From assembly GCA_030167145.1 (NCBI GenBank), contig CP126532.1:1500001-1532000 (forward strand): a stretch of DNA of 32,000 nt. The letters are read 5' to 3'. Positions 25,612 through 32,000 of this stretch are shown piece after piece. How positions within the stretch are numbered: position 1 is the stretch's first letter; every line of letters begins with the position of its first letter. Position numbers and translations under genes: made by a program. This DNA is from Ktedonobacterales bacterium (GTDB taxonomy: Bacteria; Chloroflexota; Ktedonobacteria; Ktedonobacterales; JADMIN01). The notes beneath the pieces are model-generated. The model made no database searches, was not told where the DNA came from, and saw only the letters and a program-made list of their open reading frames with translations.

Positions 25612-26407
25612 CGGTTCTCCCTTTCTCGTCGCACGTCGCCTTGCACATCGCCCATCCTCACGTCTAACCACAAGTCTAACAAAATTGTCAGAGACCGCGA
25701 CAGAGCCACTCCGCAAAACCCGCCACATAGATGACAATTTGCTCATTTGATGAACTCGTCTATTCATACATTCGCGGGCCAGACCTGCTAGACTTCTCTG
25801 CGGAACACAGCTTCGCCTGGAATGAAGGTGGAGTTGTGTTGGTGGGGAGGAAAAAACGCGATACGGGTGTGGCGCTGGTGTAGGGCAATGTGGTGTGGTG
25901 GCCAGTAACCCAAATCGCGCTGGTGGATTCATTCTTCCAGTCGGCGGTACGCGCGTAACGGCGGTGTTCGGGGGAGCAATGGGACGCGCGACTGTCCGGC
26001 AGGAAACTCTCGCTCCATTGTGGTGCTGTGTGGGGTAGTGGATGGGAGATACCAGTGCGCCCGCGTGCGTGGTATCCGGCGGGGAAACAAGGGTGTTCCT
26101 CGCGGACCATGCGCGCGTGGCGCGCGGGCGAGAGACGCGCCGCGCAACCGGGTGGGGGCATGTGTGGACAGCGTGTACCGGGCGCGGCGCGGATTCCCTG
26201 CCCCGAATACATCTACTCAACTTGACGCAGCATAGGTAGCCGCGATACCCTGAAGTCGGCACGAGGCACGTATGGATACGTATGCCATCTCGCCAGACGA
26301 CACACGAATGCGCAATGGCAGATGAGCAAGCCGGTCCACGTGCGGTAGAGCGCACAGTAGACAACACCAACAGCATTTCACTGACCTTTATCACCCTGGG
26401 AGGGACC

Positions 26408-27475
26408 ATGGCGAACGCGGCGGAAGCCGATACGCAGCGAACGGAGCGCGTTGAAGGACGAGTGGTCGCGATTGCTCCCGGCTTCTTTGAAGTCGTGACG
26501 AGTACCGAAGCGTATCTTTGCACCGCACGTGGTCGCCTACGTAAGCAGCGCCCAGCGCCTGCCTCGCGCAACCCCCACCGCCCAACATCCGGTGACGCAT
26601 CACGCGGCGCCGCCCGCTCGGCCCAGGCTGTCAAGTCGCGCGCTGAGCCAGCCGCGCCAGACGACGCCCCCGTCCGCATTGCCCCCGGAGATTGGGTGCA
26701 AATTACGCCGCTTGATGCCACCCACGGCATCATCGAAGACGTGCTCCCGCGCCGTACCGTGCTCTCGCGCGGGCGCAGCGAAGCGCGCGGCGAGCATATC
26801 ATGCTGGCAAACCTGGATTCCGCCGTGCTGGTCTTCGCGGTCCGCGAGCCTGCTCCCCACTTCGGCATGCTCGACCGTTATCTGGCGCTCTGCGAGCATG
26901 CAGGTGTAGAAGTCACCATCTGTCTGAACAAAACCGACCTGGGCGACCCGCCGGACGTAGCCGAAGCGCGGGCGCTCTACAGCGCGCTCGGCTATTCTGT
27001 GCTCGCCACCAGCACCCGCACCGGCGAAGGTCTCGATGCGCTACGCGAACGGCTGCGCGAACGTACATCGCTGCTCACGGGGCCATCCGGTGTCGGCAAA
27101 TCCTCGCTCATGAACCTGCTGATCCCCAGCGCCGCCCAGCGCACCACCGCGATCAGCCTCGCCACTGGCAAGGGCCAGCACACCACCACCGGCGTCCGTC
27201 TGCTGCCGCTGCCAGAGGGCGGTTGGCTGGCCGATTCCGCAGGCATTCGCGAGCTAGCGCTCTGGAATGTGCCGCCCGACGATCTGGCGCGCACGTTTGT
27301 TGAGTTGCGGCCCGTAGCCGAGGACTGCGAGTACGAGAATTGCGAACACTCCGCAGCCGATGCCGGCTGCGCGCTTCGCCAGGCGCAGACCGATGGGCGT
27401 ATCTCCCCGGCACGCTGGGCCAGCTTCGAGCGGCTGCTGGTCGAAGCCCGTGACGCACAGCCAGCCGTCCGGTGA
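26408..27475 (+). CDS. rsgA: Ribosome small-subunit-dependent GTPase A (circularly permuted GTPase)
   Basis: GGGAGGG SD upstream of ATG 26408. N-terminal OB-like region (EGRVVAI...ARGRLRK...GDWV). Permuted G motifs (NKTDL before GPSGVGKSSL). C-terminal Cys/His zinc knuckle (CEYENCEH...GC). Confidence 0.85.
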   Translation: MANAAEADTQRTERVEGRVVAIAPGFFEVVTSTEAYLCTARGRLRKQRPAPASRNPHRPTSGDASRGAARSAQAVKSRAEPAAPDDAPVRIAPGDWVQITPLDATHGIIEDVLPRRTVLSRGRSEARGEHIMLANLDSAVLVFAVREPAPHFGMLDRYLALCEHAGVEVTICLNKTDLGDPPDVAEARALYSALGYSVLATSTRTGEGLDALRERLRERTSLLTGPSGVGKSSLMNLLIPSAAQRTTAISLATGKGQHTTTGVRLLPLPEGGWLADSAGIRELALWNVPPDDLARTFVELRPVAEDCEYENCEHSAADAGCALRQAQTDGRISPARWASFERLLVEARDAQPAVR

Positions 27476-27501: not shown

Positions 27502-30078
27502 CTAGCCTTTTTGCTTACTCGTTGCCGCCCGCGCACGCCCGGCAGCCGCATCCCTATGGGCCGTCCGCTTGCGCTCGACACTCAGCACGCTCGGCACCTG
27601 CTGCAGCTCACTCAGCGCCTTGGCCAGTTGCTCTGGGCGCTGAATCTCCAGAGTCGCGGTAATGATGGCGCGATGCTGCTTGGGGTACGTCGCCGTATTC
27701 ACCTTGAGCATGTTGATCTTCAACCCCGTGATCACGCCTGTCACGTCCGCGAGCAACCCCGTGCGGTCCAGCGCCTCGATCACAATCGGCGCGCGGAAAT
27801 TATGCTGGCCGTCCATCTTCGGCAGGCTCACCGCAATACCGCGCCCCGGCTCCTGCGCCAGCAAATGCGCCAGATTCGGACAATCCGCCCGGTGGATCAC
27901 CACCCCCTTCCCACGGGTGATAAATCCCATCAGCGCATCGCCCGGCAGCGGATCACAGCAGCCCGCCAGCCGCGTCAGCATGCCCTCCAGACCCGCCACG
28001 CTCGCCCCAGGGTCGGTCTCGCGCGCTGGCGACGTCACCACCTCCACGGCCTCTGGCTCACTGACAGGCGGAAACAAATGCTCGCGCAGCTTGGCGATAA
28101 CGACCGAAGCCTTCAGCTTCTCAGCGCCGATACTGACCAGCAGTGTCTCGATGTCGCGCTGCTCGAAGGTCTGCGTCAGCCACTCGATATCGTCGTCGCT
28201 CAGATCCTCGTAGCCCTTCCGCAGGCCCATCGCGCGCAGATCGCGGTCCAGCCGCTCGCGCCCCATCTGCAAGTCAATATCGCGCTCGTGCGCCTTCAGA
28301 TATTTCTGGATCCGATCACGGGCCGACTTGGTGCGCGCCACATTCAGCCAGTCGCGCGTGGGGTGGGCGTCTTTGCGCTTGATGATCTCGATCACATCGC
28401 CGTTTTTTAGCTCGTAATCCAGTGGCACCAGCTTCTTCACCAGGCGTCCATTGGCATCCTGCGACGAAACACGCGCGCCCGCGACATGATTGCCCACGTC
28501 GGTATGCACCAGATACGCGAAATCTATCGGCGTCGAGCCTGCCGGCAATTCTTTCACATCGCCAGCCGGCGTGAAGACGAAGATCTGCTCCTTGAGCACA
28601 TCCCCCTTGACGGCATTCAGCACGCGCTCCGTTCCGCCTGGTCCTGGCTCTTGCAGCTCAACCTGCCATTCCTTGAGTTGCCGTACCCAGCTTTGCAGCG
28701 AATTAGCCTGCGCCGACGCCGCATCCCCCGCCGACTTGTAATACCAGTGCATCGCCACGCCGTATTCCGCCAATTCATGCATCTGGCGCGTGCGAATTTG
28801 TATCTCCGCCAGGCGGTCATCCAGGCAAAACACCGTCGTATGCAGCGACTGATAGCCATTGGGCTTCGGATTGGCGATAAAGTCCTTGATGCGCCCATCT
28901 TTGGGCCGCCACAATTCATGCACATGCCCCAGCGCCAGATAGCAGTCCGCCACTGTTTCCACAATGACGCGAAACGCCAGCACGTCATACAACGTCGAAA
29001 GGTCGTGGCTTCCTGTGCGCTCCACCTTCTTATAGATGCTATACAGATGCTTGACCCGCCCCGACACATCCGCGTGCAGCCCAATCTTGCGCATCTCCGT
29101 CCGCAGGATATCGCAGACTCGCGCCACGTATTGACCACGCTGCTGGGTATACACCCGCACCGCATCGCTCAGCCAGCGGTACTCATCCGGCTCCAGGATC
29201 GCAAAGGCAAGGTCTTCTAACTCTCCTTCGACTCGCCCCATCCCCAGGCGGCCCGCCAGCGGCGCGAAAATCTCGCGCGTCTCCTGCGCCAGCGTCCGGC
29301 ACTCTGCTTCACTCAGCGCGGGCCGCGCCTGCCCATCCGCCGTGCGTTCCGCAACGACCGGGGCAGCACCCGCGTCCACTGCGCGCCTCGCATCTGCCGC
29401 TTGCCGTGCCAGCCGCATCTGCCGCAGTTGATCGGCAATCTTGAAGACGGCGACACGCGGATCCTCTGTCATCGCCACGAACATCTTGCGCAGACTCTCC
29501 GCACCCTGGCGTTGCTGTCGCTCGCGGCTTCGCCTGCGCTCGCGCGACTGTACTTCATCTTCGGCGCCCGTTTGCGCGGTGCGCCGCAACGCCGCGCGTG
29601 GGCGCTCAAGTGTATCGAAGCGCTCGATATTCTCAATCGTCTGCGCCACCGCCTCACCGAACGCGCCCCCCAACCGCTGGCGCACATCCTCCAGCGTCAC
29701 CAGATCGCTCTCCACCGTCTGATACAGCAGCACCGCCGCCAGGCTGATGACATCAATGTGGACCGATTCCGCCAGCGTTTGCGCCACCCCAATCACATAG
29801 TCCACATCCCACTCCGGCGCCTGCCCCTCCACCGCTGTAGGCATTCCTCCCGTTTCACGCCCGCTCGCTTTATTGGGGCGTGCAGCAGCAGCGGACGGTG
29901 TGGCATACAGCGCCGCGCGCAGTTCCCGCGCGAACGCCAGCACCTGCTGAACATGCGCGACATCGTCCGCATCGAGATAGTGCTTGACGGCACGCAGCAG
30001 CCGACCCTCATCAGCGAAGGTCGCGCCCATGCCGGTAGATGTTCCGGTGGATCCGGCGAACGACCTGTGCATCATCAT
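27502..30078 (-). CDS. Long RelA/SpoT homologue, RelA-like: synthetase motifs intact, hydrolase (HD) motifs degenerate
   Basis: ATG 30078 overlaps the upstream gene's stop. Synthetase motifs GRVKHLYSIYKK, YQSLHT, EIQIRT (28789-28806) and AMHWYYK are present, along with TGS, Cys-rich (CCDPLPGD...HRADCPNL) and ACT-like regions. At the HD position the sequence reads YQ (29719-29724), and ADRLHNMRTL reads ADQLRQMRLA. Confidence 0.9.
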   Translation of the reverse strand: MMMHRSFAGSTGTSTGMGATFADEGRLLRAVKHYLDADDVAHVQQVLAFARELRAALYATPSAAAARPNKASGRETGGMPTAVEGQAPEWDVDYVIGVAQTLAESVHIDVISLAAVLLYQTVESDLVTLEDVRQRLGGAFGEAVAQTIENIERFDTLERPRAALRRTAQTGAEDEVQSRERRRSRERQQRQGAESLRKMFVAMTEDPRVAVFKIADQLRQMRLARQAADARRAVDAGAAPVVAERTADGQARPALSEAECRTLAQETREIFAPLAGRLGMGRVEGELEDLAFAILEPDEYRWLSDAVRVYTQQRGQYVARVCDILRTEMRKIGLHADVSGRVKHLYSIYKKVERTGSHDLSTLYDVLAFRVIVETVADCYLALGHVHELWRPKDGRIKDFIANPKPNGYQSLHTTVFCLDDRLAEIQIRTRQMHELAEYGVAMHWYYKSAGDAASAQANSLQSWVRQLKEWQVELQEPGPGGTERVLNAVKGDVLKEQIFVFTPAGDVKELPAGSTPIDFAYLVHTDVGNHVAGARVSSQDANGRLVKKLVPLDYELKNGDVIEIIKRKDAHPTRDWLNVARTKSARDRIQKYLKAHERDIDLQMGRERLDRDLRAMGLRKGYEDLSDDDIEWLTQTFEQRDIETLLVSIGAEKLKASVVIAKLREHLFPPVSEPEAVEVVTSPARETDPGASVAGLEGMLTRLAGCCDPLPGDALMGFITRGKGVVIHRADCPNLAHLLAQEPGRGIAVSLPKMDGQHNFRAPIVIEALDRTGLLADVTGVITGLKINMLKVNTATYPKQHRAIITATLEIQRPEQLAKALSELQQVPSVLSVERKRTAHRDAAAGRARAATSKQKG

Positions 30079-32000
30079 CGCCTCTTCTCGTCGCAGCCCT
30101 TCATCATATCACGCTGGACATCCAGTACGCCGGGCACAGTATGCAAGCGGCGCAGCACAAAATCGAGCCGCAGATTCGGCGGCACATCCAGCGTGAGCGT
30201 CATCGCCGCCCGGTGGCGCGACTGATTCGCATAGGCCCGCCCACCAGAAACGTTGATGCCGATATTGGCAGCGCACCGCGCGACTTCGTTCATCAGTCCG
30301 GGGTGATCCTGCCCCGATATTTCCAGATGCACACGATAGGTAATCGGCTGAATCTCTGGCCATATCACCGCCAGCGGCTCAGTCGCGCTGGCGCCCACGT
30401 CGTAGCGGCGCGCCAGCGCGCCACGCAATGTCCGGCAGCACGCGCGATGAATCGTAACACGCTGCCCCGCGCCCGCTAGCCCAGCGATATGATCGCCCGG
30501 ACACGGAAAACAGCAACGCCCTAACTCGACCTGTGCCCGCTTACCAGAAGGATGCCGTAACGGCTCCACAATGCTCGACAAGGCGGTCGGCTCGCTCACA
30601 TGTCGCGTTCGTTCCGCGTCATCCAACGTCCGCCGCAGCGCCCGCCCGATCTTCTCCCGCGCGTAGCGGGTGCGCGCGATATCCAGCCACGACGCATCTG
30701 GCGCGGCGTCCGGTGACGTGAGCACTCGCACAATGTCGCTGCGGCGCAAAATGTAATCCACCTCCACCTCGCGCGCAATCAGGATGCCCTGGCTCGTATT
30801 CGTCTGCACATGCGCGCCCACCGCATGATTCCCAATCTCCGTGTGAATCAGGTACGCGAAATCGAGCACCGTAGATCCTTCCGGTAGCTCACGAATCTGT
30901 CCCTTCGGGGTGAACACATGAATCTGCTCTTCAAAAAGATCGCCTCGCACTGCCGCCATAAAGTCGCTGGCATTCAGGTCCAGTTCCCGCTGCCACGCCG
31001 CCAGATGTGTCACCCACCCCAGCACCTCCGCCACCCGCACCGGCGTCGCGCCATCCACCCGTTCTCCGTGCGCCGCGCGCTCCAGCCAGTACGTCGCCAC
31101 GCCATGCTGCGCGGCGCGGTGCATCCGGTGGGTGCGAATATGTATCTGGGCGAGGCGGCCATCCAGGGCAAATACTGCGGTGTGGAACGATTGATAACCA
31201 TTGATCTTCGGTGTAGCAATGTAATCACGAATACGGTCCGTGTGCGGATGCCACAAATGATGAATCACACGCAACGCCTGGTAACAATCGTCCTTGGTAT
31301 CCACCAGCACACGAAACGCAATCAGATCGTGTAGCCCCGCGATGTCCATGCCGCTATCCTCGGCCTCGCGATACGCGCGATACGTATGCTTCAGGCGGTA
31401 GTTCACCGCCGCCTGAATGCCTTGCGCCGCCAGTTCGCGCTGCACCCGGCGACACATCCGTTTGCCCCACTCCGCCCGCTTCATCATTTCATCATCCAGG
31501 CGGGCGCTCACATGCGCGAACGTCTCCGGCTCCAGATGGAGGAATCCCAGATCTTCCAACTCTGACTTGACGAGATACAGGCCGATGCGTCCCGCCAGCG
31601 GCGCATAGATGTCCAGAGTCTCCCGCGCGATAGCCTCGCGCTTCTCCGGCGGCATCGAGCCGAGCGTCCGCATATTATGCAGACGGTCGGCCAGCTTCAC
31701 CAACACCACGCGCGGATCTTCGCTCATCGCCAGAAAGAGCTTGCGCACCGTCTCGGACTGTTGCCGCGCCTTCTTCCGTTTGCGCGCATCCACCGAAACA
31801 ATATCGCCTTCGGGTTCCACCGGCTCCACGGCAACAAACTTGGTGACACCATCCACAATCGCCGCAATGCCCGCGCCAAAACGCTCGCGCACATCATCGA
31901 GGCTGAGCGTCGTATCTTCCACTGTGTCGTGCAACAGTGCGGCAGCGATCCCCGGCGCGTCAATCGCCAGCTCGCTCAGCAGTGTCGCCACCGCCACCGG
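30075..32000 (-). CDS. Long RelA/SpoT homologue, SpoT-like (5' end outside the window): hydrolase motifs intact, synthetase motifs degenerate
   Basis: The ORF is open to the window edge. Hydrolase motifs LLHDTVEDT (HD codons 31926-31931) and EDPRVVLVKLADRLHNMRTL are present. The synthetase signature reads QIHIRT (31131-31148) instead of ExQIRT, YRLKHTYRAYRE instead of GRxKHxYSIYxK, and ATYWLER instead of AAHWxYK. TGS, Cys-rich and ACT-like regions are present. Confidence 0.9.
   Translation of the reverse strand, partial: PVAVATLLSELAIDAPGIAAALLHDTVEDTTLSLDDVRERFGAGIAAIVDGVTKFVAVEPVEPEGDIVSVDARKRKKARQQSETVRKLFLAMSEDPRVVLVKLADRLHNMRTLGSMPPEKREAIARETLDIYAPLAGRIGLYLVKSELEDLGFLHLEPETFAHVSARLDDEMMKRAEWGKRMCRRVQRELAAQGIQAAVNYRLKHTYRAYREAEDSGMDIAGLHDLIAFRVLVDTKDDCYQALRVIHHLWHPHTDRIRDYIATPKINGYQSFHTAVFALDGRLAQIHIRTHRMHRAAQHGVATYWLERAAHGERVDGATPVRVAEVLGWVTHLAAWQRELDLNASDFMAAVRGDLFEEQIHVFTPKGQIRELPEGSTVLDFAYLIHTEIGNHAVGAHVQTNTSQGILIAREVEVDYILRRSDIVRVLTSPDAAPDASWLDIARTRYAREKIGRALRRTLDDAERTRHVSEPTALSSIVEPLRHPSGKRAQVELGRCCFPCPGDHIAGLAGAGQRVTIHRACCRTLRGALARRYDVGASATEPLAVIWPEIQPITYRVHLEISGQDHPGLMNEVARCAANIGINVSGGRAYANQSRHRAAMTLTLDVPPNLRLDFVLRRLHTVPGVLDVQRDMMKGCDEKRR

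Follow-up and report, generated by a model that had tools for sequence, protein, structure and literature searches.

Tandem long RelA/SpoT homologues with reciprocal catalytic decay in Ktedonobacteria: a predicted dedicated (p)ppGpp hydrolase and a predicted dedicated synthetase

Two genes encoding long RelA/SpoT homologues (RSHs) lie head to tail on the minus strand of a 32,000-nt stretch of DNA from a Ktedonobacterales bacterium (Chloroflexota; contig CP126532.1, positions 1,500,001 to 1,532,000), hereafter referred to as the window. The catalytic sites of their products have decayed reciprocally: the upstream gene, A, encodes a protein with an intact HD (hydrolase) domain and a substituted synthetase domain, and the downstream gene, B, a protein with a degenerate HD domain and an intact synthetase domain. 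We think it probable that the pair consists of a dedicated (p)ppGpp hydrolase and a dedicated synthetase, issued from a tandem duplication that took place within the lineage. Below, we describe the anatomy, residue states, conservation and synteny of the pair, as well as the paralogue clade that it forms in neighbor-joining (NJ) trees, and from these we infer the activities and the ribosome dependence of A and B.

Most bacteria possess one bifunctional Rel, and the RelA/SpoT couple arose in beta- and gammaproteobacteria (PMC3153485, PMC9974481, PMC6606846), full reciprocal subfunctionalisation being placed in Moraxellaceae only (PMC9974481). Atkinson et al. (2011) described lineage-specific Rel duplicates, RshA to RshD, among them the Bacteroidetes RshB with a RelA-like divergence of the HD domain, and they attributed one Rel[HS] to Chloroflexi, Ktedonobacteria lying outside their sampling (PMC3153485). 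The update of this classification (Jimmy 2020) distinguishes 13 long-RSH subfamilies, and its text makes no mention of Chloroflexi. We found no description of a tandem RSH pair from Ktedonobacteria or Anaerolineae in the searchable literature, which is not proof of absence.

A and B are long RSHs with complementary catalytic sites

Gene A extends from position 30075 to beyond position 32000 (minus strand), its first 80 codons lying outside the window; an exact-protein match on the parent contig (JGI 3300045419 Ga0494333_323) gives a full-length product of 721 residues. Gene B (27502–30078, minus strand) encodes 858 residues. Both products are long RSHs, as judged from the order of their HD_4, RelA_SpoT, TGS and ACT domains (Pfam, NCBIfam). 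Between TGS and ACT, B contains both the helical domain (AH or HEL) and the Cys-rich zinc-finger domain (ZFD or RIS), and A contains the ZFD and a HEL of only ~58 residues. The NCBIfam RelA/SpoT subfamily model TIGR00691 scores B at 535 bits and the window fragment of A at 486 bits, below the cut-off of 499 because the fragment is truncated by the window end; neither A nor B reaches the cut-offs of the NCBIfam RelA and SpoT equivalog models.

Residues were mapped by HMMER alignments to Mycobacterium smegmatis Rsh (8fr8), Bacillus subtilis Rel (6yxa), Staphylococcus aureus Rel (7oiw) and Escherichia coli RelA (5kps), and a second time by aligning both proteins with B. subtilis Rel in MAFFT. The numbering used throughout is that of B. 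subtilis Rel and RelSeq, which is identical for both in the HD domain and offset by one at the catalytic Glu. The two mappings agree that the residues altered in A and B occupy catalytic positions, as the initial annotation had supposed, and the positions it had given for the QIHIRT, EIQIRT and YQ motifs, the TGA stop and the ATG start were all re-derived exactly.

The HD domain of A (31578–31997; Pfam HD_4, 6.5e-42) comprises the motifs LLHDTVEDT (31911–31937) and ADRLHNMRTL (31662–31691), and the hydrolase residues R44, H53, H77, D78, E81, D82, D144 and N148 are all retained. Its synthetase domain (31086–31397; Pfam RelA_SpoT, 3.5e-26, and motif alignment) differs from the canonical one by a set of substitutions involving (i) G240Y and K251E in YRLKHTYRAYRE (31365–31400); (ii) E324Q and Q326H in QIHIRT (31131–31148); (iii) the replacement of the His of AAHW by Tyr in ATYWLER (31077–31097). 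A thus displays the [Hs] pattern, with an intact HD domain and replaced catalytic synthetase residues, and is predicted to be a monofunctional (p)ppGpp hydrolase of the long RSH type. Synthesis is abolished by E323Q in RelSeq and by G251E in E. coli RelA. Likewise, the E324V mutant of B. subtilis Rel is inactive as a synthetase, and the mutant with Ala at both positions 77 and 78 is inactive as a hydrolase (PMC7098656).

The C-terminal half of A consists of a TGS domain (30717–30923; Pfam, 9.7e-17), a helical remnant (30537–30710), a Cys-rich zinc-finger/RIS domain (30366–30536, with RCCFPCPGD at 30492–30518) and an ACT/RRM domain (30111–30341; Pfam ACT_4, 7.7e-12). No Pfam match to PF19296 (RelA_AH_RIS) was found in A. 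The description of both copies as full-length is therefore correct for B and has to be amended for A, where the region between the TGS and Cys-rich domains measures ~58–64 residues versus ~130 in B, i.e. a loss of ~70 residues. We modeled the fold of A with AlphaFold2 (AF2) through an orthologue displaying 68% identity (P0121). In this model, which has a predicted local distance difference test score (pLDDT) of 76, and of ~90 in the HD domain, the helical domain is reduced to a single helix, in agreement with the alignment. Foldseek superimposes its N-terminal domain (NTD) on that of S. aureus Rel with a TMt of 0.92. As the inter-domain confidence of the model is low (predicted template modelling score, pTM, 0.53), its overall comparison with the compact tau-state of A. 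baumannii SpoT (7qpr), in which the C-terminal domain wraps around the core and activates the HD domain (TM 0.41–0.43, rmsd ~19 Å), and with ribosome-bound RelA (rmsd 38 Å) has to be read with this limit.

In B, the HD domain (29383–30033) is recognized by Pfam as a weak match to HD_4 split into two pieces (1.3e-20). Its catalytic and metal-binding residues are replaced: LLYQTVESD (29704–29730) corresponds to H77Y, D78Q and D82S, with YQ in place of HD at 29719–29724, and ADQLRQMRLA (29407–29436) to N148Q. Moreover, the R44–H53 substrate/metal loop is replaced by a disordered Ala/Pro-rich insert of 32 residues (29809–29904; alignment and AF2), and the α6–α7 loop is expanded (29284–29409; loop lengths and low pLDDT at residues 239–252). 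The initial annotation had the N-terminal part of the HD fold replaced by this insert. The AF2 model of B, built with 30 orthologues (mean pLDDT 70.6), confirms the insert at the loop and contradicts the rest of the statement: the helical pseudo-HD fold is kept, including N-terminal helices 16–32 and 37–59, and disorder is confined to the insert (residues 59–90, with pLDDT <50 at 61–88) and to the α6–α7 loop. Consistently, Foldseek aligns the NTD of B with those of Rel proteins with a TMt of 0.70–0.79.

The synthetase domain of B (28729–29061; Pfam RelA_SpoT, 8.3e-39) is canonical. It contains GRVKHLYSIYKK (29026–29061), with GRVKH, YDVLAFRV (28966–28989), GRIKDF (28879–28896), with RIKD, YQSLHT (28837–28854), EIQIRT (28789–28806) and the HW motif, and D264 is present. 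It is followed by a TGS domain (28378–28584; Pfam, 1.1e-20), a full helical domain and a Cys-rich RIS/ZFD (27865–28344; Pfam RelA_AH_RIS, 1.1e-06; GCCDPLPGD at 27937–27963), with five helices between the TGS domain and the zinc finger in the AF2 model, and an ACT/RRM domain (27571–27804; Pfam ACT_4, 2.6e-17). With its HD catalytic and metal residues replaced and its synthetase residues intact in the alignment, B has the [hS] pattern and is predicted to be a monofunctional ribosome-type (p)ppGpp synthetase of the long RSH type.

The pair and its reciprocal decay are conserved in Ktedonobacteria

All the homologues of A and B belong to Ktedonobacterales/Ktedonobacteria (Chloroflexota), and many of them share a contig. 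Scanning one genome per species of the GTDB yielded 80 loci, including those of the cultured Dictyobacter alpinus, D. vulcani and D. arantiisoli and of one Ktedonobacter metagenome-assembled genome (MAG). They fall into clade 1, to which the window belongs (L001–L037), and clade 2, formed by Ktedonobacteraceae/Dictyobacter (L038–L081). Where 2 kb or more of upstream sequence is available (73 loci), a long RSH gene lies upstream on the same strand in 72 cases, so that the pair recurs in the same order in relatives; the upstream copy is frameshifted in two loci (L021 and L040) and absent from one (L069). The downstream copy is HD-degenerate and synthetase-intact in 80/80 loci and the HD motifs are intact in every upstream copy. 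The reciprocal decay first read from the window is thus conserved and not peculiar to one locus.

The upstream synthetase site carries different substitutions in the two clades. In clade 1, its motifs read AQxHIRT, NWRxK and YRAYxE. In clade 2, EIQIRT and D264 are kept, GRxKH is changed to AWQKH (R241W), YSIY to ASIN and AAHW to ASYW. The helical region of the upstream copies has a median length of 64 residues in clade 1 and 131 in clade 2, compared with 132–137 in B-type copies. The decay of the upstream synthetase is graded across the clades, with R241W in clade 2 and E324Q/Q326H plus HEL truncation in clade 1. The α6–α7 loop, which measures 9 residues in A-type copies and in B. subtilis Rel, spans 26–81 residues in B-type copies of clade 1 and 13–40 in those of clade 2.

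The degenerate domains are themselves conserved. In 32 A-type sequences with a mean identity of 57%, the Gln that replaces the catalytic Glu in the window clade (E324Q) never varies, and the neighboring His (Q326H) is present in at least 90%. Mean pairwise identity is 62% in the pseudo-synthetase domain of A versus 66% in its HD domain, and 54% in the pseudo-HD domain of B versus 78% in its active domain. Altogether, the invariant Gln, the near-invariant His and the conservation of the pseudo-domains point to selection rather than to pseudogenes.

The A/B junction and the surroundings of the pair

At the junction, which reads cgATGATGATGcac, the A stop codon TGA (30075–30077) overlaps a B start codon ATG (30076–30078). 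More specifically, an AAGAGG sequence is followed by cgATGATGATG (30070–30088), and three in-frame B ATGs, beginning at 30078, 30075 and 30072, are present in AAGAGGcgATGATGATGcac, so that the overlap is 4 nt or 1 nt, or zero if B begins at the third ATG. The junction therefore has operon hallmarks, namely a stop/start overlap and a Shine-Dalgarno sequence, AAGAGG, inside A, and from this layout co-transcription and translational coupling of A and B are most likely.

We surveyed the junctions of the other loci by taking the nearest in-frame start as the start codon, which is a heuristic. An overlap of the ATGA/GTGA type is found in 18/35 clade-1 loci, frequently 6 nt after GGAGG, and three further clade-1 loci show overlaps of 7–14 nt; the genes are separated by spacers of 3–850 nt in the other clade-1 loci and in every clade-2 locus, the number of ATGA overlaps in clade 2 being zero. 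Since it occurs in about half of the window clade and never in Ktedonobacteraceae, the ATGA overlap is a derived feature of the clade with the most degenerate A, not a defining one. The overlap from which the initial annotation read coupling is hence present at the window locus and does not extend to the class.

Two features of the surroundings are worth recording. A convergent rsgA gene, encoding a ribosome small-subunit GTPase, is located immediately beyond B (26282–27475, plus strand); this arrangement recurs in 19 clade-1 loci, whereas no Ktedonobacteraceae locus shows it. In other bacteria, GTPases of the RsgA type have been reported to be targets of (p)ppGpp. On the other side, A is separated from the divergent upstream gene by an unusually long non-coding gap of ~1.06 kb (L001, 6775–7838), of which only the last ~110 nt are conserved in relatives. 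Outside the window, ~110–220 nt upstream of the A start (L001, 7618–7725), a promoter-like TTGACG-18-GATAAT sequence precedes a strong GC hairpin and a T-run (RNA minimum free energy −56 kcal/mol, z −4.96), and five further clade-1 loci retain the hexamers and the stem of this leader, compensatory changes included. The leader is a candidate attenuator for the rsh operon; scanning the 1.1 kb that precede A against Rfam gave no match.

Origin of the pair

A and B share only 33% identity. Their scores against outside canonical Rel proteins are ~340–412 bits, neither of them being plainly closer to any lineage, and a search of 1.84 billion representatives returned canonical Rel proteins only as nearest outsiders (35–42% identity). 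With no obvious donor lineage among these representatives, an origin by horizontal transfer is unsupported. The upstream and downstream copies of one Dictyobacter genome, which are less derived, are mutually closest, with a score of 601 bits versus 334–480 bits to outsiders and a distance of 0.76, all distances to outsiders being 0.97 or more.

In a first NJ tree (160 sequences, 701 columns), all the Ktedonobacteria copies form one clade (98/100), together with a divergent pair described below, and the downstream copies group at 100/100. A second NJ tree was built from the columns spanning the synthetase to ACT domains, after addition of E. coli RelA and mycobacterial Rel, SpoT not being among the sequences; all the Ktedonobacteria copies are again grouped (85/100) and B-type copies are joined with E. 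coli RelA in 0/100 replicates. This shared clade, never associated with E. coli RelA, and the pairwise scores support a duplication that gave rise to A and B independently of proteobacterial RelA/SpoT, in line with the initial proposal. The 0/100 grouping and the B motif, RIKD instead of EFDD/ExDD, speak against B being a RelA orthologue, a reading that we reject. A and B most likely work like SpoT[Hs] and RelA, respectively, without belonging to these subfamilies. Note that the orthology of the upstream copies rests on synteny.

The divergent pair (L084, ENA contig k141_424787, 8.3 kb) is a tandem of highly divergent genes with a 5-nt spacer, encoding 695 residues with DIHIRT and VPHVKH, then 816 residues with LQHVAIDP. 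Other RSH paralogues were encountered outside the window. A 1303-residue protein from Ktedonobacteraceae/Chloroflexota MAGs (P0263/P0408) has a long-RSH-like N-terminus, with a degenerate HD domain (LYPLTAGV, ADSLHKMRS) and a partly altered synthetase domain (YFRPKH, EIQVRT), fused to a second region annotated as an AAA family ATPase in one cluster member; Ktedonobacteria would then possess a third type of RSH paralogue. Besides the tandem pair, Ktedonobacter robiniae possesses an extra RSH of 609 residues (P0268, WP_201375448.1) with an intact HD domain and a degenerate synthetase domain (QAQQKH, EIHIYT).

A second tandem pair in Anaerolineae

An RSH from an Anaerolineae MAG (P0272) carries AIKVRT and FARPNH, and a second long RSH gene, whose product contains LYTFFN and AARLHTMRV, lies 16 nt downstream, thus forming another [Hs]-[hS] pair. 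Synthetase-degenerate copies represent 3 of 120 relatives, and all three belong to tandem pairs (L082, L085 and L086). As in the window, the hydrolase-only gene comes first and the synthetase-only gene second, with short spacers (16–75 nt) and reciprocal motif loss. Unlike those of the window, both Anaerolineae copies are of the ExDD type and keep a full HEL, the substitutions are others (E324A/T/S and Q326K; HD to YT/HK) and the distribution is narrow. The two Anaerolineae copies are mutual best matches (661 bits), and in a canonical relative rel stands alone within the same synteny (SurA-like gene, S18, SSB, S6), which indicates a separate, more recent in situ duplication with the same polarity. 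The tandem [Hs]-[hS] split is hence seen at least twice in Chloroflexota, hydrolase-first both times.

The ExDD motif is normally linked with monofunctional RelA. In Chloroflexota, it is present (GEFDDY) in many Rel proteins with intact HD and synthetase domains, such as P0250, P0252 (Thermomicrobiales), P0257 and Anaerolineae Rel, and these proteins sit near E. coli RelA in the NJ tree of the synthetase to ACT region.

Comparison with known RSH pairs

The window genes are adjacent, co-oriented and, in their clade, often overlapping, whereas the proteobacterial relA and spoT genes are unlinked. At the protein level, the window pair resembles Acinetobacter baumannii RelA[hS] and SpoT[Hs], which also show a complete reciprocal split with retention of the dead domains (PMC9974481). 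Tamman et al. (2022) observed a long α6–α7 loop in the synthetase-only copy and a short linker/HEL in the hydrolase-only copy, trends that are matched by B and A, respectively (PMC9974481). The routes differ, however: the substitutions of A. baumannii SpoT are D272S/Q347T (RelTt numbering), whereas A combines E324Q/Q326H with a conserved D264; A is devoid of most of the HEL domain, which A. baumannii SpoT has; and B has the RxKD motif (RIKD) of bifunctional Rel instead of the ExDD of RelA. E. coli RelA[hS] and SpoT[HS] are similar to the window pair in that one copy is an HD-degenerate synthetase and the other mainly a hydrolase (PMC3153485, PMC6606846), but the synthetase site of E. coli SpoT is active, if weak, whereas the catalytic Glu is replaced in A. 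Finally, none of the RshA to RshD duplicates is described as tandem and reciprocally degenerate.

Proposed scenario and alternative explanations

We propose that a bifunctional rel gene underwent tandem duplication in an ancestor of Ktedonobacteria and that the copies divided the opposing activities between them. A would be an Mn-dependent hydrolase of (p)ppGpp, similar to SpoT[Hs] and endowed with a conserved, non-catalytic pseudo-synthetase domain and, its HEL having shrunk to one helix, it would probably no longer be controlled by the ribosome. B would be a RelA-like synthetase with a dead, retained pseudo-HD domain and a complete TGS–AH–ZFD–ACT sensor module, which presumably makes (p)ppGpp on ribosomes holding deacylated tRNA. 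In the window clade, as the ATGA overlap suggests, B would most likely be co-transcribed with, and translated after, its antagonist A, so that their production would be tied.

Several observations weigh against this scenario. The gene overlap is missing in ~40% of clade-1 loci and in all clade-2 loci, and a weak 5-bp terminator-like hairpin is present within the 3′ end of A, no other terminator lying between the genes. The monophyly of the upstream copies is recovered in 18/100 NJ replicates, the root position is sensitive to branch lengths, and NJ with the simple Kimura distance is prone to long-branch attraction. The survey covered the tandem locus, and any small alarmone synthetase or hydrolase encoded elsewhere in the genome would change the circuit. 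Finally, R241, K243, D264, R269, Y308 (in the G-loop) and H312 are still present in A, so that A may bind nucleotides and might conceivably retain a residual or altered activity, and the clade-2 upstream copy, which has both the catalytic Glu and Gln, may be weakly bifunctional.

These last two points are the basis of the alternative that survives best, an asymmetric split in which B is a monofunctional synthetase and A still a SpoT-like bifunctional enzyme with weak synthesis. The constraint acting on the pseudo-synthetase domain of A and the EIQIRT motif of clade-2 upstream copies would fit such a split. However, E. coli SpoT, which is a weak synthetase, keeps the canonical synthetase motifs that A has changed; in the window clade, Glu is invariably replaced by Gln, with G240, K251 and Q326 replaced too, and E324V by itself is enough to kill synthesis by B. 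subtilis Rel (PMC7098656). We therefore regard the asymmetric split as improbable. Still less probable, in our opinion, is an obligate heteromer, in which the HD domain of A and the synthetase domain of B would rebuild one regulated bifunctional unit, with the pseudo-domains serving as the contact. The stop/start overlap, the conserved adjacency and the retention and conservation of both pseudo-domains are compatible with it, but the overlap is not class-wide, and the known analogues, RelA and SpoT, work independently of each other, SpoT of A. baumannii being monomeric (PMC9974481). As for the idea that one copy is a functionless decaying duplicate, or the pair an assembly or annotation artefact, which the two frameshifted upstream copies and the missing one might evoke, it is effectively refuted by conservation: both frames are intact in ~70 independent genomes, cultured Dictyobacter among them, the motifs are conserved even where identity drops to 43–55%, and the parent contig of the window is 5.07 Mb long.

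Implications

RelA/SpoT is the textbook case of an enzyme split after duplication, and it rests essentially on one proteobacterial event and its Moraxellaceae refinement. If the division of activities proposed here is correct, a phylogenetically independent case is provided by the Ktedonobacteria pair, and another, of more recent date, by the Anaerolineae loci. Living clades would even preserve intermediate stages, the ATP site being lost first (Ktedonobacteraceae), with loss of the Glu and HEL truncation in the window clade. The pair also displays an overlapping operon layout, which would set the ratio of hydrolase to synthetase production. Whether features such as the expansion of the α6–α7 loop and the shrinkage of the linker/HEL reflect convergent necessity or accident thus becomes testable.

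A broader proposal, which we put forward as speculative and judge rather unlikely as a whole, is that tandem duplication followed by reciprocal site loss is recurrent and predictable, that the clade-1 genes form a coupled module and that the pseudo-site of A is a nucleotide sensor. If true, hydrolase-first coupling would prevent a potentially toxic synthetase from ever being produced in the absence of its antagonist, akin to antitoxin-toxin operons; the Gln/His pseudo-site of A, with its G-loop and ATP-phosphate residues, would be an allosteric tuner of off-ribosome hydrolysis.

In databases, the current annotations (bifunctional enzyme or GTP pyrophosphokinase) are probably wrong for both A and B. 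Ktedonobacteria live in soil as filamentous spore formers with a rich secondary metabolism, and the tandem pair would provide a first concrete lead on the wiring of their stringent response.

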